Of a stretch of DNA of 64,000 nucleotides, positions 2,335-63,220 are shown one piece after another. This DNA comes from Alphaproteobacteria bacterium (GTDB taxonomy: Bacteria > Pseudomonadota > Alphaproteobacteria > SPJN01), in the NCBI GenBank assembly GCA_049609145.1, contig JBMYYF010000007.1:9823-73822 (forward strand). The letters are read 5' to 3'. The notes below the pieces were generated by a model. It was not told where the DNA came from, made no database searches, and was given only the letters and a program-made list of their open reading frames with translations. Position numbers and translations under genes: made by a program. Within the stretch, counting starts at the first letter, position 1. Each line of letters opens with the position of its first letter.

Positions 2335-2775
2335 ATGTCGTCCCCAAATTGTCCCCCAAGCCATGGCAGAGCTTTTACGCATATCGCGTTGCATATCAAG
2401 GCGTTGAAGCCTTCTATCGCATTTTATCGAGATTTGTGTGGGCTGGTGGTGGTGCATGAACGCACTGATAACGGCACAGGCGTGGCATGGATGGCAGATA
2501 AAGGCCACGAGGATCGCTTTGTGATTGTGTTGATAGAAGGCGGCGATCATCCAGCGCAGGAGGAGGATGATTTCAGCCATATCGGCATTGCCGTTGAAAG
2601 CCGGGCAGAGGTGGATGCCATCGCCGCTCATGGGCGCGATGCAGGCTGTCTGGCGTGGGAGCCAACCGATCTACCTTATCCCGTGGGTTATTTTTGTGGC
2701 TTGCGCGACCCCGATGGCAAAATTGTTGAGTTTTCCTACGGTCAGCCCCTTGGCCCCGGTGCGCCAAAGCATTAA
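2335..2775 (+). CDS. VOC family protein (glyoxalase/bleomycin-resistance/extradiol-dioxygenase fold)
   Basis: 146-aa product with 'FTHIALHIKALKPSIAFYRDLCGL...HIGIAVESRAEVDAI...DPDGKIVEF', a typical beta-alpha-beta-beta-beta VOC module pattern with His/Glu metal ligands. Confidence 0.7.
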   Translation: MSSPNCPPSHGRAFTHIALHIKALKPSIAFYRDLCGLVVVHERTDNGTGVAWMADKGHEDRFVIVLIEGGDHPAQEEDDFSHIGIAVESRAEVDAIAAHGRDAGCLAWEPTDLPYPVGYFCGLRDPDGKIVEFSYGQPLGPGAPKH

Positions 2776-2806
2776 CCTTTCCCCAAATTGGGAAAGGGGC
2801 TTCTCC

Positions 2807-5095
2807 ATGAAACGCGTGTTTTTGATTTTGGTGCTGTTGATCGGCGCCGGGGTGATTTTTCATTTTATGGGCACAAACGGGCTGGTGGGTGATCCCGGTG
2901 ATGCCGGCACAATAGAAGGGGCCGCCCTGCCGGCTGGGGTCACAACCGCGAAGGTTGAAACCCAGCAAAGCGCCATCGCGGCCATGGGCAAAAACCCGGA
3001 AAGCCAAATCCTGTTTGGCGATCTGCATGTTCACACAACATTCTCTGCTGATGCGTTCATGTTCTCGCTGCCCGTTGCCAGCGGGGTGGGGGCGCATCCG
3101 GTCGCAGATGCGTGTGATTTTGCACGTTATTGTTCCCAGCTTGATTTCTGGTCGATTAACGACCATGCCGAATATCTCACCTCCAGCCGCTGGGGCCAAA
3201 CGGTAGATACGATCCGTCAGTGCAATGCGGTGGCAGGGGATCAATCCAACCCTGACATGGTCAGCTATCTGGGTTGGGAATGGACACAGGTTGGCTTGGA
3301 TCGCCCCAGCCATTACGGCCACAAAAATGTCATTCTGGCAGATTTGGCAGATGATCGAATTCCAGATCGCCCCATCGCTTCAGCCGTTGGTATTGCGGGC
3401 ACCCGCGTGTCGCCTGCCATCGGTATGGCGGGTTACTGGTTTTCCTACGATAGCAGCTTTTTGGATTTTGCGGCCTATTTGCATGAAACCGCCAAGGAAG
3501 ATGGCTGCCCGCAGGGCTTGAATGTGCGGGATCTGCCGCAAGGCTGTATCGATGCAACGCCAACGCCGGATGTTCTTTATCGCAAATTGCGCGAATGGGG
3601 CCATCGTTCCATTGTTATCCCGCATGGCACCACATGGGGGCTGTACACGCCCCAAGGGTCAAGCTGGGACAAGCAATTGGCGGGCGACATGCACGACCCC
3701 AATATCCAAACCTTGATCGAAGTGTTTTCCGGTCATGGTAACTCAGAAGATTATCGCCCATGGCGCGAATATGAAGTGGCGGAAGATGGCACGCATATTT
3801 GCCCGGAACCATCGGAGGGCTATTTGCCTCTGTGCTGGCAGGCAGGCGAAATTACGGAAAAACGCTGCAATGATATTGGCACGGAAAGCCCTGAAGCCTG
3901 CGCCCAACACGCCGCCAATGCGCGCAAATTTGGCGCGAATGTCGATGGGTCCAATCCATGGCGTGTACTCAAAGGCACGGAGCTGACAGATTGGCTGGAT
4001 GCGGGCCAATGCGCCGATTGCTTCCAGCCCGCCTTCAACTATGTGCCCACAAGTTCCGTGCAGTACATTCTGGCACTCACCAATTTTGACGAACCGGGCG
4101 AGCCCAAGCGTTTTCGGTTTGGCATGATGGGGTCGTCTGATATTCACACCGCGAAGCCCGGCACGGGCTACAAGGAATATTGGCGCACAGAAATGACAGA
4201 GGCCGTGGGCGCAGATAAAGATGCGCCGTTTTGGGCCACCGCATCTGTGTTCCCAACAGATGAAGCCCGTAGGAATTATGTCCCGGTAGAGGTGGCGTCT
4301 GGCACGCAAGGCGGGCTGACATCTGTCGTCAATCAAGCGTCGGTGGGGCAATTGGATGGCACGGGGTCATCCCTTTATACAGGCGGCTTGATTGCCGTTC
4401 ACGCCGATGGGCGCGATCGCGATTCGATCTGGCAAGGAATGCAACAAAAGAACGTCTATTCCACCTCCGGCCCGCGCATGTTGCTGTGGTTTGATGCGGT
4501 GCACGAAGATGGCACGCGCGATCCAATGGGCACCCAGATTGTGTCAGACAGCTCCCCCGTTTTTGAGGTAAAAGCCCTTGGCTCTTTTGAACAAAAGCCC
4601 GGCTGCCCCGATCACGTGACCGATGGTTTAACCGGCCAGCGGATTGAGGCACTGTGCGGGGGCGAATGTTACAACCCCTCAGATGTCCGTCGGCCCATCT
4701 CGCGGATCGAGATTGTGCGGATCAGGCCGCAAGCCACACCGGGCGAAAGCATGGATCAATTGATTGATGATCCATGGAAAGTGTTTGAGTGCCCGGCAGA
4801 TGGCACAGGCTGTTCTGCCACCTTCACGGATGAGGCGTTTGCCGGGTCCGGGCGGGATGCGGTCTACTACGCCAAGGCGTTCGAGGTACCTTCCATGGCA
4901 GTGAACGGCAAGCAATTGCGCTGCACCTATGATGAGGAAGGCAATTGCATCGCGACCAATCCCTGCTATGGCTCCAATATCCGCACACCGGAAGATGATG
5001 ATTGCTTGGGCGAAGTGGAAGAACGCGCTTGGTCTTCTCCCATCTTTGTCGATCACAAGGCGGGCGTCATGGCTACTGCAACGCTGGCGGATTAG
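2807..5095 (+). CDS. DUF3604 family protein with N-terminal membrane anchor/signal
   Basis: Start chosen at ATG 2807 (GGAAAGGGG SD upstream; MKRVFLILVLLIGAGVIF hydrophobic N-terminus). Contains 'GDLHVHTTFSADAF...DFWSINDHAEY' PHP-like metal-binding motifs characteristic of DUF3604. The long ORF-track version starting at 2567 overlaps the VOC gene and is probably not the real start. Confidence 0.75.
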   Translation: MKRVFLILVLLIGAGVIFHFMGTNGLVGDPGDAGTIEGAALPAGVTTAKVETQQSAIAAMGKNPESQILFGDLHVHTTFSADAFMFSLPVASGVGAHPVADACDFARYCSQLDFWSINDHAEYLTSSRWGQTVDTIRQCNAVAGDQSNPDMVSYLGWEWTQVGLDRPSHYGHKNVILADLADDRIPDRPIASAVGIAGTRVSPAIGMAGYWFSYDSSFLDFAAYLHETAKEDGCPQGLNVRDLPQGCIDATPTPDVLYRKLREWGHRSIVIPHGTTWGLYTPQGSSWDKQLAGDMHDPNIQTLIEVFSGHGNSEDYRPWREYEVAEDGTHICPEPSEGYLPLCWQAGEITEKRCNDIGTESPEACAQHAANARKFGANVDGSNPWRVLKGTELTDWLDAGQCADCFQPAFNYVPTSSVQYILALTNFDEPGEPKRFRFGMMGSSDIHTAKPGTGYKEYWRTEMTEAVGADKDAPFWATASVFPTDEARRNYVPVEVASGTQGGLTSVVNQASVGQLDGTGSSLYTGGLIAVHADGRDRDSIWQGMQQKNVYSTSGPRMLLWFDAVHEDGTRDPMGTQIVSDSSPVFEVKALGSFEQKPGCPDHVTDGLTGQRIEALCGGECYNPSDVRRPISRIEIVRIRPQATPGESMDQLIDDPWKVFECPADGTGCSATFTDEAFAGSGRDAVYYAKAFEVPSMAVNGKQLRCTYDEEGNCIATNPCYGSNIRTPEDDDCLGEVEERAWSSPIFVDHKAGVMATATLAD

Positions 5096-8480: not shown

Positions 8481-8566
8481 GCCCGGCTTGGCCTTTTTTT
8501 TGACATCTTGTGTGATAGGGTGCGCGGCAACATCTATCAAGCCTTCAATATAACGGAGTTACCGAT

Positions 8567-9577
8567 ATGCGGCGTGCACTATTTCTGGGTCTTGCGACTG
8601 CGATGATCTCCACCGGGGCTTTTGCCCAAACGCTGGAACACACCAAAAAGATCGACAATGTCGCCTGCGGCGTTAGCCAAGGGTTGCCCGGTTTTTCCAG
8701 CCCGGATGATCAAGGCAACTGGACCGGGATTGATGTGGATGTGTGTCGTGCCGTCGCTGCCGCTATTTTTGGCGATGCCGACAAAGTGAAATATCGGCCC
8801 ACTTCGGCGAAGGAACGGTTCACCGCCCTGCATTCTGGGGAGTTCGATATTCTGTCGCGTAACACCACTTGGTCACTGACCCGCGACACCGCCCAATCAC
8901 TCGATTTCGTGACCGTGAACTATTACGACGGGCAGGGCTTTATGGTGCGCAAGGATTTGGGCGTAACCTCCGCTAAGGAGCTTGATGGCGCTACCTTGTG
9001 CATTAATGCAGGAACCACGACAGAGCTGAACGCGGCAGATTATTTCCGTACCAACGGCATGACGTTTGAGGCAGTTACGTTCGAGAAATCTGATGAGGTT
9101 GTCGCCGCCTATGATGCGGGCCGCTGCGATGTATGGACGACGGATCAATCCGGCCTTTATGCCAATCGGGTAAAGCTGGCAAACCCGACTGAACATACTG
9201 TGTTGCCGGAAGTCATTTCCAAAGAGCCGCTTGGCCCGGCAGTGCGCCAAGGCGATACGCAATGGGCCGATATCGTGCGGTGGAGTGTGTTTGCCATGGT
9301 CGCCGCGGAAGAATTCGGCATCACCGCCGCAAATGTAGATCAAATGCGCGATACGTCTAAAAATCCAGAGGTGCGTCGTCTGTTGGGTGTTGAAGGCAAA
9401 ATGGGTCGCAAGCTCGCGCTGCCGGATGATTGGGCCTATCAGATCATCAAGCAGGTTGGCAATTATGGGGAAAGCTTTGAACGCAATGTTGGCAAAGGCT
9501 CCCCGCTGGAAATTTCCCGCGGCTTGAATGCTCAATGGAACAAAGGCGGCTTAATGTATGCGCCGCCCGTTCGGTAA
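8567..9577 (+). CDS. aapJ: general L-amino acid ABC transporter substrate-binding protein
   Basis: Signal peptide MRRALFLGLATAMISTGAFA-QT, then a periplasmic binding protein fold with 'GFSSPDDQGNWTGIDVDVCRAVAAA', typical of AapJ/BztA. Confidence 0.8.
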   Translation: MRRALFLGLATAMISTGAFAQTLEHTKKIDNVACGVSQGLPGFSSPDDQGNWTGIDVDVCRAVAAAIFGDADKVKYRPTSAKERFTALHSGEFDILSRNTTWSLTRDTAQSLDFVTVNYYDGQGFMVRKDLGVTSAKELDGATLCINAGTTTELNAADYFRTNGMTFEAVTFEKSDEVVAAYDAGRCDVWTTDQSGLYANRVKLANPTEHTVLPEVISKEPLGPAVRQGDTQWADIVRWSVFAMVAAEEFGITAANVDQMRDTSKNPEVRRLLGVEGKMGRKLALPDDWAYQIIKQVGNYGESFERNVGKGSPLEISRGLNAQWNKGGLMYAPPVR

Positions 9578-55426: not shown

Positions 55427-55792
55427 ATGGCGGTCACTCCCCAATACACGGAATATTTGCGAGAGTTGTTCGAGCCCATCGGCGCGGTGGAGGTCAAACG
55501 CATGTTTGGCGGTGCAGGGGTGTTCTTTCATGGGGTGATGATCGCCCTATGTGCGGATGAACAGATTTACCTGAAAAGCGATGCCGAAAGTGACCCGCAA
55601 TTTGAAGAGGCGGGGGCAGAGCCGTTCGTTTTTGAAGGCAAGAACGGTAAGCGTGGCGTGATGAGTTACCGGCTGATGCCGGATGAATGCTACGATGACC
55701 CCGATGCTTTCAAAGACTGGGCGCGCATCGCCATTGATGCTGCCTTTCGTGAAGACGCCAAAAAACCGCCGAGTAAGCGAAAGCGGAAATAG
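55427..55792 (+). CDS. TfoX/Sxy N-terminal-domain protein (121 aa)
   Basis: 'VKRMFGGAGVFFHGVMIALCADEQIYLKSD' matches the TfoX N-terminal domain pattern. Lys-rich C-terminus. No C-terminal TfoX domain. Confidence 0.6.
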   Translation: MAVTPQYTEYLRELFEPIGAVEVKRMFGGAGVFFHGVMIALCADEQIYLKSDAESDPQFEEAGAEPFVFEGKNGKRGVMSYRLMPDECYDDPDAFKDWARIAIDAAFREDAKKPPSKRKRK

Positions 55793-55793
55793 G

Positions 55794-55807
55794 TTGTCAC
55801 TTGACAA
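55794..55807. promoter_or_regulatory. perfect inverted repeat TTGTCA-ct-TGACAA immediately upstream of the hicA-like gene
   Basis: Seen directly. It contains a TTGACA -35-like hexamer and could be the autoregulatory operator of the TA pair. Confidence 0.3.
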
Positions 55808-55824
55808 CTTTACAGGGATTTGGT

Positions 55825-56121
55825 ATGAAAAAGCGCGCTAAACACTCGAACAAGGATATTGAGACGACTCTAAGGGAGTTAGAGGCACTTGGGTGGATTG
55901 TTGAAAAGGCCAAGGGTAAGAGCTCCCATAGTTGGGGGTTCATACTTTGCCCTTGGAATGCGGAAGATTGTCGGGATAGGCAGTTTTGTCGAATGTCTGT
56001 TTGGTCAACACCGAGGAACCCGGCGCAGCATGCCGCCGCTTTGCTAAGTAAAGCCGCGCATTGTGTGAAGGAGTCACAAGATGAAGACGAAGATGAAGAT
56101 GAAGACGCAAACACAGAATAA
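55825..56121 (+). CDS. HicA-like (YcfA family) toxin with a Cys-rich insertion and poly-acidic C-terminal tail (98 aa)
   Basis: 'KDIETTLRELEALGWIVEKAKGKSSHSWGF ... RMSVWSTPRNPAQHAAALLSKA' aligns by eye with the HicA pattern (GW ... GSH ... R.SV.P.HP ... ilkq). Extra 'CPWNAEDCRDRQFC' and a DEDEDEDED tail. Region visibly lower in GC. Confidence 0.5.
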   Translation: MKKRAKHSNKDIETTLRELEALGWIVEKAKGKSSHSWGFILCPWNAEDCRDRQFCRMSVWSTPRNPAQHAAALLSKAAHCVKESQDEDEDEDEDANTE

Positions 56122-56590
56122 GGTATTTGAGTTTGATCTCATTTTTACACGTCCATCAGATATGGACGATTTAGGTTTGTCTGATGCGCTATTTGAGGCC
56201 GGGCTTGATGATGGTGTCATTGGACTGGGAGAAGCGGGGTTGTTCGCCGTTTCGTTGGAACGCAGCGGAGAGGAAGCCGAGGCAGTGATTGAAGTAGCGA
56301 TTAGGCAGATTGTTAAGGCTGTGCCTAACGCGATATTACGCGAAGTAAAACCTGATTTGGCAAGTCAGGCAGAAATTGCTGGGCGATTGGGAGTGACCCG
56401 TCAAGCATTGCAAAAGCGCAAAATGCCCGCACCGTCGCTCGGGGGGCTTTATCGCGTCAAAGAAGTTGAAAGCGCGCTAGGCGCAAGCAGTGGCAAAATT
56501 GCTGAGCGTCTTGCAGCGGCGGAGCCATGGTTTCGTGCAGCAGAAGGGGCGCAACGCCTGAACGCCAAACTAGCTTTGGAAGAGTCGTGA
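56081..56590 (+). CDS. HicB-like antitoxin with C-terminal helix-turn-helix (169 aa)
   Basis: ATG 56081 preceded by GAAGGAG SD. Central 'SLERSGEEAEAVIEVAIRQIVKAV' resembles the HicB 'G.tleEA..nA.eAi' region. C-terminal 'SQAEIAGRLGVTRQALQKRK' is a textbook XRE-type HTH. 5' end overlaps hicA by 41 nt in another frame. Confidence 0.5.
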   Translation: MKTKMKMKTQTQNKVFEFDLIFTRPSDMDDLGLSDALFEAGLDDGVIGLGEAGLFAVSLERSGEEAEAVIEVAIRQIVKAVPNAILREVKPDLASQAEIAGRLGVTRQALQKRKMPAPSLGGLYRVKEVESALGASSGKIAERLAAAEPWFRAAEGAQRLNAKLALEES

Positions 56591-56599
56591 ACCTGTAAA

Positions 56600-57451
56600 T
56601 CACCCAACGGGCCAATTATCAATCAGGCGGGCTTTACCGATTTTGGCGGCGACATAGGCGCGGGCGGGTGCTGCAACCTTGCCCTCTACCAACGCCATGG
56701 TTTCCATATCGCGAATTTCAAGATAGTCGATCTGGGTGATGCCAGCGTCTTCAAGTTTGCTGCGGCCTTGGGCTGTCGCGTCTGCTGCCGTTGCGCCTTT
56801 TGCAATGGCCTCCGCCATTGTCTGCAAGGTTCGGTGAAGATGCAGGCCTTGGGCGCGGTCATCATCGGTGAGATATTTGTTGCGCGATGAGGTGGCAAGG
56901 CCATCTGCATCACGAATAAGGGGTGCGCCCAAAATTTCCACCGGGATATCAAGATCGCGGACAAAGCGGCGAATAACTTGCAGTTGCTGAAAATCCTTTT
57001 CGCCAAACACGGCGACATCCGGCCCGCATTGCAGCAGCAGCTTGGTAACGATCAGCGCCACGCCATCAAAATGACCGGGGCGCGCCGCGCCGCACAACAC
57101 ATCGCTCACGCCGCCAACGGTAACTTTGGTGGCAAAGCCGTTGGGGTACATTTCGTTCACCGTGGGGGCATAGACCATATTGCCCCCTTGCGCGGCCACC
57201 ATGGCGCAATCTTCCGTCTCTGTGCGGGGATAGGCATCAAAGTCTTCATTAGGGCCAAACTGGGTCGGGTTCACAAAAACGGAGACGACGACTTTATCCG
57301 CATATTTTTTGGCGTGATCGATCAAGGTCATATGACCGTGATGCAATGCGCCCATGGTTGGCACCAAGGCTACGCGATGGCCCTCTGCACGCCAATCGGC
57401 GACGGTGGCGCGTAGATCATTGACGGTGCGGGTAATCGGCAAATCAGCCAT
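56600..57451 (-). CDS. panC: pantoate--beta-alanine ligase
   Basis: Start at ATG 57451-57449 (GGGAGAGG SD). 'ALVPTMGALHHGHMTLI' (HxGH motif), 'VSVFVNPTQFGPNED'. Confidence 0.85.
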   Translation of the reverse strand: MADLPITRTVNDLRATVADWRAEGHRVALVPTMGALHHGHMTLIDHAKKYADKVVVSVFVNPTQFGPNEDFDAYPRTETEDCAMVAAQGGNMVYAPTVNEMYPNGFATKVTVGGVSDVLCGAARPGHFDGVALIVTKLLLQCGPDVAVFGEKDFQQLQVIRRFVRDLDIPVEILGAPLIRDADGLATSSRNKYLTDDDRAQGLHLHRTLQTMAEAIAKGATAADATAQGRSKLEDAGITQIDYLEIRDMETMALVEGKVAAPARAYVAAKIGKARLIDNWPVG

Positions 57452-57477
57452 ATGAACCTCTCCCAAAGTTGGGGCTG

Positions 57478-61465: not shown

Positions 61466-61723
61466 CTGCCTCGCCTCGGCTGTTCATTTTTCTGCCGAAT
61501 CACCCTGCGGTTAGCATAAGGGACGGAGAGTCAAGGGAGCAAGGGAATTCTCGCCCAAAATTGGTTAATTTCTTCCTGATTCCAGCCACTTAGCCTGTGG
61601 ATAAATTGTGAATGAGTACTCTGGCCTCAAACTCGATATGCATTGGCAAAGATGCCTCTTTCACCTTCAGCAAGAATAAGGATAATGCGCCCAACATGAA
61701 TTTTGCGTAAACGGGGGTTAATC

Positions 61724-63220
61724 ATGAGTAATGGGGGCAATGTGAGTGCTTCGGCGGCTTTGCCGACTGGGCTGCAAACGGCGATCATTGTGGGGGCCGG
61801 GGCATCTGGTCTGTGTACGGCGATCAAGCTGAAACAGCAGGGGATCGACAAATTTGTGATCCTTGAATTGTCCGATGGCGTGGGCGGCACATGGCGCGAT
61901 AATTCCTATCCCGGTTCGGGCTGCGATGTGCCAAGCCACCTTTATTCATTCTCATTTGAACCTAATCCCAATTGGACCCGGCGCTTTTCCCGCCAGCCGG
62001 AGATTTTGGATTACTTTGAATTTGTGGCGGATAAATACAAGCTGCGGCCTCATATCGTTACCAATACGCGGGTGGATGAGGCGCGTTACGACGCGGAAAA
62101 TTCCACATGGAAAGTTACCACCGATAAGGGCGATGTGGTTGAAGGACGGTTCCTGATATCGGGCACCGGGCAACTTAACCGTCCCTTCGTGCCGGAGATT
62201 GAAGGGACAGACAGTTTTGCGGGCACCGCCTTTCATTCTGCGCGGTGGAACCACGACCATGATTTAACGGGCAAAAACATTGCGGTGATCGGTAATGGGG
62301 CCTCTGCCATTCAATTCGTGCCGGAGATCGTGCCGAAAGCAGCGAATGTGACCATCTTCCAACGCAGCGCAAACTGGATTGTTGAGAAGCCGGATCGGTC
62401 TTATCCCGCCTGGGAACGCGCGCTTTATAAATATGTGAAGCCATTATTGTGGCTTTCCCGCCAGCGCATCTTCTATGCGTTTGAAATGCGCTTCAGCTCG
62501 TTCAAGCAAGGCACATGGTTGAACAAGGTGGCGGACAAAGCTGCGCGTGAGCACATGGAAGAAGAATTGAAAACGGACGAAGCGCGCGCGCTGCATATTC
62601 CTGATTATCCAATCGGGTGTAAGCGGGTGCTGATCTCCAATGATTATTTGGCCGCGGTGCAAGAACCGCATGTGAAGGTGAACACCAGTGGTGTGGCAAA
62701 GATAGAGGCCGATGCGATCATTGGAAATGATGGGCAGCGGCACGAGATTGATACGCTGATTTATTCAACAGGTTTCAAAACGTCTGAGTTCATTTCGCCG
62801 ATGAAAGTGGTGGGCGTTGATGGCATTGATCTGAATGCGGCATGGAAAGAAGGGGCCGAGGCGCACCAAGGCATTACGGTTGCGGGCTTTCCCAATTTCT
62901 TTATGGCTTATGGTCCCAATACCAATCTGGGTCACAATTCCATTATCTTTATGGTGGAATGCCAAGTGCGCTACATCATGAATTGTTTGAACATGGTGTT
63001 GGCGCGCGACTTGAAGGCGCTTGATGTAAAGCGTGAGGCAATGTCGGCTTACAATACCCGGTTGCAGAACGCACTTGGTGATACCATTTGGGCCGCCGGT
63101 TGCGATAGCTGGTATAAAAACGATGCTGGCAAGATCGTCAATAATTGGTCGGGCTATGCGTTGGGCTATCGCAAGGAAACGCGCAAGCTTAGCTGGGATG
63201 ACTACCAGTTGATCGCCTGA
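61724..63220 (+). CDS. flavin-containing / Baeyer-Villiger-type monooxygenase (FAD and NADPH binding)
   Basis: Start at ATG 61724. 'AIIVGAGASGLCTA' (FAD GxGxxG), 'VIGNGASAIQ' (NADPH GxGxxG), FMO-like linker motifs. Confidence 0.75.
   Translation: MSNGGNVSASAALPTGLQTAIIVGAGASGLCTAIKLKQQGIDKFVILELSDGVGGTWRDNSYPGSGCDVPSHLYSFSFEPNPNWTRRFSRQPEILDYFEFVADKYKLRPHIVTNTRVDEARYDAENSTWKVTTDKGDVVEGRFLISGTGQLNRPFVPEIEGTDSFAGTAFHSARWNHDHDLTGKNIAVIGNGASAIQFVPEIVPKAANVTIFQRSANWIVEKPDRSYPAWERALYKYVKPLLWLSRQRIFYAFEMRFSSFKQGTWLNKVADKAAREHMEEELKTDEARALHIPDYPIGCKRVLISNDYLAAVQEPHVKVNTSGVAKIEADAIIGNDGQRHEIDTLIYSTGFKTSEFISPMKVVGVDGIDLNAAWKEGAEAHQGITVAGFPNFFMAYGPNTNLGHNSIIFMVECQVRYIMNCLNMVLARDLKALDVKREAMSAYNTRLQNALGDTIWAAGCDSWYKNDAGKIVNNWSGYALGYRKETRKLSWDDYQLIA

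Follow-up and report, generated by a model that had tools for sequence, protein, structure and literature searches.

A PDC-M06 gene pair with a putative toxin-first organisation, a conserved upstream palindrome and a repeat-extended gene overlap in an alphaproteobacterial contig

PDC systems are phage-defence candidates that were nominated from homologues embedded in BREX, DISARM or type I restriction-modification (RM) loci (10.1101/2024.01.29.577857). One of them, PDC-M06, corresponds to cassette CAS_00046 (FAM_01986>>FAM_01364) and has 497 RefSeq instances (Payne et al. 2024, 10.1101/2024.01.29.577857); its known members have neither a published function nor a published fold or operator. Among toxin-antitoxin (TA) modules, hicAB is the system that resembles it most. 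HicA is a small (50-100 amino acids, aa) single-domain protein with the α-β-β-β-α topology of a double-stranded RNA-binding domain (dsRBD) (Gerdes 2023; Butt 2014, PMC3969222), in which G22 and H24 of the motif G22-S23-H24, located in the β1-β2 loop, are essential and G14-W15 and P39/P41 are conserved (Butt 2014, PMC3969222). The N-terminal domain of HicB has a partial RNase H fold, β-β-β-α-β-α (Gerdes 2023). Here we describe two genes, A and B, at 55,794-56,590 of a 64,000-nt stretch of contig JBMYYF010000007.1 from an alphaproteobacterium (hereafter the window). An earlier note, made from the sequence alone, had described the locus as a low-GC, hicAB-like TA islet.

The two genes are co-directional, A before B, and are flanked by tfoX (55427-55792) and the convergent panC (56600-57466):

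55825-56121, + strand: gene A, ATG at 55825 and TAA at 56119-56121, 98 aa, ending QDEDEDEDEDANTE (open reading frame, ORF)
56081-56590, + strand: gene B, ATG at 56081, 169 aa, starting MKTKMKMKTQTQNK (ORF)

The protein of gene A reads MKKRAKHS...HCVKESQDEDEDEDEDANTE and that of gene B begins with MKTKMKMKTQTQNKVFEFDL; gene callers run on Logan contigs also gave 169 aa for B. Six PDC-M06A models of PADLOC-DB matched A (best E = 7.4e-27, residues 3-88), and the PDC-M06B model PDLC04388 matched B (E = 2.3e-22, residues 16-113). The pair thus shares hidden Markov model matches, gene order, strand and adjacency with PDC-M06 and is, by these profile matches, a PDC-M06 cassette and an ordinary addition to a catalogued candidate family. 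Neither protein scored above any threshold in Pfam or NCBIfam, A being without any Pfam match. We found additional matches of A to phrog_5923 (function unknown; E = 5e-11 over 77 residues) and of B to phrog_2620 ('excisionase and transcriptional regulator', 6e-7), which shows that relatives of both occur in (pro)phage genomes; tblastn of A gave no GenBank phage record at E <= 1e-3. That A and B are spurious ORFs was ruled out by the deep conservation of both families.

We read the locus as an autonomous, mobile, autoregulated and translationally coupled TA-like cassette of PDC-M06 with a toxin-first organisation of the hicAB type, a reading to which we assign a probability of about 0.55. Under it, A would be an RNA-targeting toxin that binds or cleaves RNA and thereby arrests growth, with a near-invariant H35 in the β1-β2 loop at the position of the essential His of HicA, and with a set of Cys and His residues that probably ligates a metal bracing an enlarged β2-β3 loop. 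B would be translated by coupling to A, from a Shine-Dalgarno (SD) sequence and start codon within the A tail. Its acidic ferredoxin-like domain may bind and neutralise A, and its basic helix-turn-helix (HTH) part may dimerise on GTTGTC-N4-GACAAC upstream of A and repress the operon. An expansion of a hexamer between the SD/ATG of B and the stop codon of A would have lengthened A by about 7-10 acidic residues and B by about 10 basic ones. The general traits of type II TA systems are present: a coupled and conserved gene pair, an upstream palindrome together with an HTH partner, and a patchy, mobile distribution. The charges are also those of a toxin and its antitoxin, the A family being basic, the N-terminal domain of B acidic and its C-terminal part basic. 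The cassette may stabilise plasmids, act in abortive infection, to which its PADLOC status points, or promote only its own persistence.

To place the pair within its family, we collected 80 A-B loci and 20 plasmid copies. A word-indexed search gave 202 B homologues, mostly from Alphaproteobacteria, and an exhaustive HMMER search gave 286 A cluster representatives at E <= 1e-3 (clusters at 50% identity). In 80 of the 85 loci with a B gene, the gene immediately before it is a co-directional A homologue. The toxin-then-antitoxin order described earlier is therefore a family trait, with both functions putative. Two independent natural A-B fusions were found, L043 and P0197; fusions also exist in hicAB, as in class 11 of Gerdes. 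In the P0197 protein (261 aa), residues 2-83 form the A domain and residues 92-251 the B domain; this protein matches the B family with an hhalign probability of 99.5% and is more divergent than L043. The L043 fusion (Sulfitobacter maritimus NZ_JABVBB010000032.1, 2754-3594) looks as if it arose from a 1-nt frame change near the usual overlap and is either a real fusion or an assembly error.

The cassette occurs on conjugative plasmids, in resolvase, integrase and transposase islands, on cyanobacterial and Ralstonia replicons, and solo among housekeeping genes (the window copy and L169-L173), and it extends over several phyla. Type II TA modules are typically distributed in this way: patchy, mobile and self-contained. 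Unlike the copies within BREX, DISARM or type I RM loci from which PDC-M06 was nominated, that of the window stands alone between housekeeping genes. On the Sulfitobacter alexandrii plasmid NZ_CP018081.1 (L174, 4995-5820) the cassette lies between genes of a type IV secretion system (T4SS) and those for the coupling protein and relaxase; about 28 near-identical Rhodobacterales loci (L057-L084) probably belong to the same plasmid backbone. In L170-L173 a PIN/PhdYeFM pair (8529-9196) is convergent to A-B and lies 25 nt downstream of B, a clustering of TA genes.

The family is systematically under-annotated. RefSeq plasmid copies carry both genes as 'hypothetical protein' or lack a call for A, and A was likewise left out of the annotation in front of B in Tistrella mobilis CP121034 and several contigs of metagenome-assembled genomes (MAGs; L169 7451-8001, L170-L173 7655-8001). 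This is a practical annotation gap, as the small A gene is often missed, including in the GenBank record of the MAG from which the window derives. There, B is ACPG06_10660 and A is missing from the NCBI annotation; the exact A protein is recorded only from Logan assemblies.

The intergenic gap between tfoX and A measures 32 nt and opens with a palindrome:

55793-55808, no strand: 16-bp perfect palindrome GTTGTCACTTGACAAC, abutting the tfoX stop codon and 16 nt upstream of the ATG of A; putative operator for B
55814-55818, + strand: putative SD-like AGGGA for gene A, purine-rich, 6 nt 5' of the ATG

The perfect inverted repeat TTGTCA-ct-TGACAA reported in the earlier note proved to be the core of this longer perfect 16-mer, which was matched only once in the 64 kb, with 0.08 matches expected by chance. 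When we examined the homologous loci, TTGTC-N4-GACAA was found about 35-37 nt before the start of A in 64 of 67 distinct upstream regions. The three exceptions are artefacts of start codon choice; with the protein domain as anchor the motif is present in about 79 of 80 loci. The half-sites are invariant across the family and the central four bases drift. In parallel to this conservation, the second helix of the B HTH, [VI][TSK]RQALQ[KQ]R, is near-invariant. Since a palindrome conserved at a fixed distance goes together with a near-invariant recognition helix in B, we read the palindrome as an operator. This strong comparative evidence suggests that a dimeric HTH protein, in the simplest case B itself, uses GTTGTC-N4-GACAAC as its operator.

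In homologous loci, GGAG or AAGG stands at the place of the AGGGA of gene A. This conserved SD between palindrome and start ruled out a leaderless A mRNA, so that the promoter either overlaps the palindrome or lies inside tfoX. The TTGACA of the palindrome was rejected as a −35 box: with a spacing of 17 nt, the −10 box would fall on the ATG, and transcription would begin too far downstream to include the start codon. No terminator was found on the + strand between tfoX and A, and therefore read-through co-transcription of A-B from tfoX is possible. The upstream tfoX is itself a gene for the N-terminal domain only (PF04993, 8e-28).

The junction between A and B combines four features:

56081-56121, + strand: A/B overlap, 41 nt with ATG 56081 as the start of B, 29 nt with ATG 56093 or 23 nt with ATG 56099
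56068-56073, + strand: AAGGAG SD for gene B, inside the A tail (codons K-E), 7 nt before ATG 56081
56078-56105, + strand: imperfect hexamer repeat GATGAA/GACGAA (GAAGAY); Tandem Repeats Finder gives period 6, 4.7 copies and 90% matches
56071-56118, + strand: acidic A tail ESQDEDEDEDEDANTE, predicted disordered (predicted local distance difference test, pLDDT, 50-59), net charge −10

The 41-nt dual-frame overlap with its strong SD and the origin of acidic tail and basic head from one repeat are as the earlier note had them. Two further in-frame ATGs of B, at 56093 and 56099, lie inside the repeat, so that B has three possible starts, which correspond to overlaps of 41, 29 and 23 nt. The repeat reads D-E-D-E in the A frame and M-K-T-K in the B frame. 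These mirror charges follow from the genetic code: GAY-GAR gives D-E, and one base on, ATG-AAG-ACG-AAG gives M-K-T-K.

Across the family, the SD (AAGGAG or GAAGG) and the ATG of B sit in the C-terminal tail of A, with a modal overlap of 8 nt, and AAGGAG with a 7-nt spacing recurs in homologues, for instance as AAGGAG-AATGATG-ATG in L015. Tails of A are often acidic or glycine-rich, since GGAG, GAAGG, GATG and TGA encode E, G and D in the A frame; 56% of them are net negative. The window copy keeps the typical landmarks, namely the 7-nt spacing from SD to ATG and a stop codon of A 4 nt before the FEFDL core of B. The tail after C80, on the other hand, is 18 aa long (family median 11) and has the lowest net charge in the family, −10, and 15 residues precede FEFDL in B versus 4-6 in homologues. 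The tail shifts the isoelectric point (pI) of A from 9.64 for the core to 5.57, the lowest value in the alignment. Both the acidic A tail and the B head are predicted to be disordered and lie outside the conserved cores.

No comparable repeat was found at the A-B junction in the 80 other loci, and within PDC-M06 the GAAGAY overlap expansion is seen in the window copy alone. Judged from this comparison, the expansion is lineage-specific, and nothing indicates an adaptive value. In other TA genes with overlap coupling (ATGA-type or 4-8-nt overlaps), the downstream SD and start likewise lie inside the upstream 3' end. The difference here is that a tandem hexamer stretches the overlap to 41 nt and gives both proteins mirror-charged, low-complexity extensions. 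The repeat shows how an embedded downstream ribosome-binding site and start codon force acidic residues onto the upstream protein, and how a single duplication lengthens two proteins by segments of opposite charge.

The AlphaFold2 model of A (pLDDT 80.8) comprises α1(10-21)-β1(25-28)-β2(36-41)-loop-β3(56-60)-α2(66-80), followed by a disordered tail. This predicted topology matches the α-β-β-β-α dsRBD-like fold that defines HicA, and with 98 aa the protein lies within the small single-domain class of 50-100 aa. Counterparts of the HicA residues are found at G23-W24 (90% and 96% conserved), [G/A/S]34-H35 (H35 95%) and T62-P63...P66. H35 is located in the β1-β2 loop or at the start of β2 and was aligned to the GSH of HicA by hhalign (95% of 222 sequences). 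For this alignment we used a HicA profile of ten plasmid HicA genes annotated in RefSeq, four of which were checked against PF07927 (E about 1e-20 to 1e-23). Residues 14-37 of A aligned colinearly with HicA 6-28 over 23 columns (helix 1, GW, β1 and GSH), with a probability of 35% and P = 4e-4, and the controls, a reversed family alignment and the B family, gave at most 0.5%. In a Foldseek search of BFVD, phage proteins annotated as HicA appeared at ranks 3, 11, 26 and 27; the rank 3 hit had a probability of 0.98 and TM 0.50/0.72, yet an E-value of 0.12. The median pI of the A family is 9.0, that of the HicA set 10.2. Deleting the Cys loop from the A alignment made the HicA alignment neither longer nor stronger. 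We found no natural HicA genes in the 1.1 Mb of fetched loci.

A narrow profile of E. coli HicA relatives was discarded as too shallow: it finds just 6HPB in the PDB and gave a non-colinear match of 16 columns with A. The best hhalign match of A to E. coli HicA is also non-colinear (probability 65%). In the E. coli HicA alignment, the N-terminal R-H-P-x-K-E-I-E of A, with the invariant H7 before helix 1, pairs with P-R-H-P-x-x-E-I before helix 2 of HicA. A also carries T-P-R-N-P before its own helix 2, a repeated helix-capping motif that is unexplained (A residues 3-20 correspond to 55831-55884).

The segment that the earlier note had taken for an atypical insertion with four Cys residues is the following:

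55948-55989, + strand: Cys-rich β2-β3 loop CPWNAEDCRDRQFC, codons C42-C55, conserved in the family

A indeed has four Cys, but CPWNAEDCRDRQFC holds three (C42, C49 and C55) and the fourth is C80. Over 222 sequences, C42 is conserved at 98%, C49 at 69%, C55 at 95%, C80 at 89%, H7 at 91% and H35 at 95%. By this alignment the Cys-rich segment characterises the A family as a whole and is not an insertion private to the window protein; compared with HicA, it amounts to an enlarged β2-β3 loop. Because three or four Cys plus His occur in a cytoplasmic protein of 90 residues, it is a reasonable inference from the sequences that C42, C55 and C80, with or without C49, H7 and H35, form a structural metal site. 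Our literature search found no paper on a zinc-binding, metal-binding or Cys-bearing HicA. We regard A as a putative toxin, a small, basic, Cys- and His-bearing protein with a predicted HicA-type topology.

B was modelled with higher confidence (AlphaFold2, pLDDT 92) as β-α-β-β-α-β (14-90), an HTH (96-111) and helices up to residue 168:

56120-56350, + strand: acidic ferredoxin-like N-terminal domain of B, residues 14-90 (AlphaFold2); putative A-binding and neutralising domain
56366-56419, + strand: helix-turn-helix of B, QAEIAGRLGVTRQALQKR, residues 96-113, with helices at 96-103 and 107-111; the basic C-terminal part runs on to 168

The best Foldseek hits of the N-terminal domain were ferredoxin-like folds of the ACT, PII and S6 types (E about 0.01-0.1), with no HicB among them, and no HicB Pfam family matched any of the 37 B family members examined. 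Judged by its model, B is not HicB, and its identification as such has to be given up. The predicted helices and sub-threshold HTH matches do indicate a C-terminal HTH, as in HicB-type antitoxins. In Pfam, only sub-threshold HTH_11, AsnC and HTH_24 matches were obtained for the window B; in the family, HTH_11 matched 20 of 37 members. HTH_3 (PF01381, the XRE family) did not match the window B and matched 3 of 37 members (best E = 0.0064), so the more specific label XRE, used in the earlier note, was not borne out. The N-terminal domain has a pI of 4.07 (family range 4.05-4.46), the C-terminal part one of about 10-11. A terminator-like hairpin, CGTCCATCAGATATGGACG, followed by a T-rich run, is present on the + strand inside the 5' part of gene B (56150-56168) and is probably a chance match.

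With hicAB, the cassette shares a bicistronic operon of overlapping genes, the putative toxin first, and a putative palindromic operator. A shares with HicA its small size, the basic character of its family, the α-β-β-β-α order, GW at the α1/β1 junction, a His in the β1-β2 loop and prolines in the β3-α2 loop. B shares an N-terminal neutralising domain, putative here, followed by a C-terminal HTH, as in class 3 of Gerdes. The differences are that A fails PF07927 and has a Cys-rich β2-β3 loop of 12-14 residues, a conserved C-terminal Cys and an invariant N-terminal His, all lacking in HicA, and that the N-terminal domain of B is ferredoxin-like, whereas that of HicB is a partial RNase H. The predicted HicA-type topology of A with its motif mapping, the predicted non-HicB architecture of the antitoxin and the putative family-wide operator are absent from the literature that we found. 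Tentatively, PDC-M06 could represent an unrecognised branch of HicA-fold toxins, Cys/His-braced (probably through zinc) RNases, together with a new class of antitoxin and a family-wide operator; the window copy would then carry a polyacidic, possibly self-inhibiting tail. If so, this branch would be a further HicA context beyond the 14 catalogued. If the TA-like reading is true, a widespread cassette (497 instances in RefSeq, 286 or more clusters at 50% identity, conjugative plasmids of marine Roseobacter-group bacteria) gains a concrete mechanism, and PDC-M06 could be examined as an abortive-infection module of the TA type.

Several results weigh against the TA-like reading or its link to HicA. 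PF07927 was not matched by the window A and was matched by one of 55 family members only (E = 0.092), and the A family profile retrieved no HicA chain from the PDB at E <= 10. Foldseek of the A model against the PDB was non-significant (best hit the DGCR8 dsRBD, E = 1.3), and the hhalign probability between A and HicA reached 35% only, which does not establish homology statistically. The failed sequence tests are weak evidence, as HicA subfamilies are very divergent among themselves; E. coli HicA itself retrieves no other HicA from the PDB. For A, the label 'HicA-like' of the earlier note therefore keeps its predicted topology, motif positions and partial alignment, lacks a Pfam match and significant PDB hits, and is weakly supported. 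Moreover, with its pI of 5.57 the window A is net acidic, which could blunt nucleic-acid binding, and the neutralising domain proposed for B is without precedent among HicB antitoxins. A consensus scan upstream of A found no σ70-type promoter. No defence system adjoins this copy, its neighbours being suf, tfoX, panC and mipZ. Payne et al. list 145 PDC systems, PDC-M06 included, as untested (10.1101/2024.01.29.577857), and our literature search found no experiment on any PDC-M06 member and no paper mentioning PDC-M06.

The main alternative, which we consider doubtful, is that the pair is a non-toxic regulatory unit of mobile elements. B would then be an HTH factor acting on the palindrome and A a metal-binding co-regulator or anti-repressor, and together they would control neighbouring conjugation or RM genes in the manner of controller proteins. 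Such a role would suit the position of A-B on Roseobacter-group conjugative plasmids, with the T4SS operon on one side and the genes for coupling protein and relaxase on the other, the PDC-M06 copies inside RM, BREX and DISARM operons, the similarity of B to phrog_2620 and the strong conservation of the operator; the toxic role of A is itself something we infer from sequence. However, the cassette with its own operator also stands solo among unrelated housekeeping genes, in the window and in L169-L173, so that it has no constant regulatory target except itself. A basic A paired with an acidic B domain, translational coupling and A-B fusions are furthermore traits of TA modules. The cassette could also be a bona fide but diverged hicAB, composed of a canonical HicA RNase and HicB. 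The toxin-first order, the C-terminal HTH as in class 3 of Gerdes, and the topology and motif positions of A speak for this. We find it improbable all the same, because B has β-α-β-β-α-β in place of the partial RNase H domain (β-β-β-α-β-α) and no HicB Pfam match, 54 of 55 A family members fail PF07927, RefSeq leaves plasmid copies 'hypothetical protein' or uncalled, and none of the 14 HicA contexts in Gerdes 2023 has a Cys-rich HicA or such a partner.

The polarity of the TA-like cassette could also be reversed, with B or its ferredoxin-like domain as the effector and A as an inhibitor or sensor. Activity has been assigned to neither protein, and ACT and PII-like folds are able to bind ligands. 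Nevertheless, this is very improbable: to our knowledge, essentially all type II systems have the antitoxin as their DNA-binding partner, the N-terminal domain of B is strongly acidic and A basic, and it is A that has conserved His and Cys residues, as would be expected for a catalytic protein. Most improbable among these unlikely alternatives is the idea, raised in part by the earlier note, that slippage in the hexamer repeat alters both proteins at once, which would make it a contingency tract in which 6-nt changes adjust the tail of A and the head of B, or select the start codon of B, and thereby set the toxin:antitoxin balance. The tandem repeat is genuine, every GATGAA unit provides an in-frame ATG for B, the tail makes the window A the most acidic of its family, and gain or loss of a unit keeps both reading frames. 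On the other side, 4.7 imperfect copies at 90% identity are short for efficient slippage, and the affected tail and head are predicted disordered, outside the conserved cores. We compared the MAG with two Logan assemblies from separate sequencing runs, using the contigs that carry an identical TfoX, and all three were 100% identical over 1301 nt, repeat included, in what amounts to one sampled population. A scan of JGI metagenomes with exact flanks gave 0 matches for repeat-length variants, and the repeat is missing from the 80 other loci. Identical assemblies and zero metagenome variants, from one population, thus provide no evidence of slippage.

Finally, we looked at the base composition and surroundings of the locus. 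Recomputing the GC content confirmed the dip described earlier, which is genuine and modest: the region has 50.4% GC compared to a mean of 55.4% (sd 2.3) in windows of the same size (z = −2.1, lowest 1%). The GC3 values are 0.49 for A and 0.47 for B versus 0.60-0.66 in tfoX, sufS and panC. The locus was probably acquired horizontally. A search for signatures of integration found neither a tRNA nor an Rfam family, nor direct repeats on either side of the locus. The housekeeping flanks comprise suf, tfoX, panC, an FAD oxidase gene and mipZ. A synteny comparison was uninformative on the islet, as the closest PanC relatives are at most 56% identical and all lack tfoX, sufA, the DAO gene, A and B in their neighbourhood. 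Other stretches of the window with similarly low GC (<=50.4% over 797 nt) are located at about 29.1-29.9 kb, 38.3-39.2 kb and 61.4-63.2 kb, the last of which includes a flavin-monooxygenase-like ORF (61703-63220).

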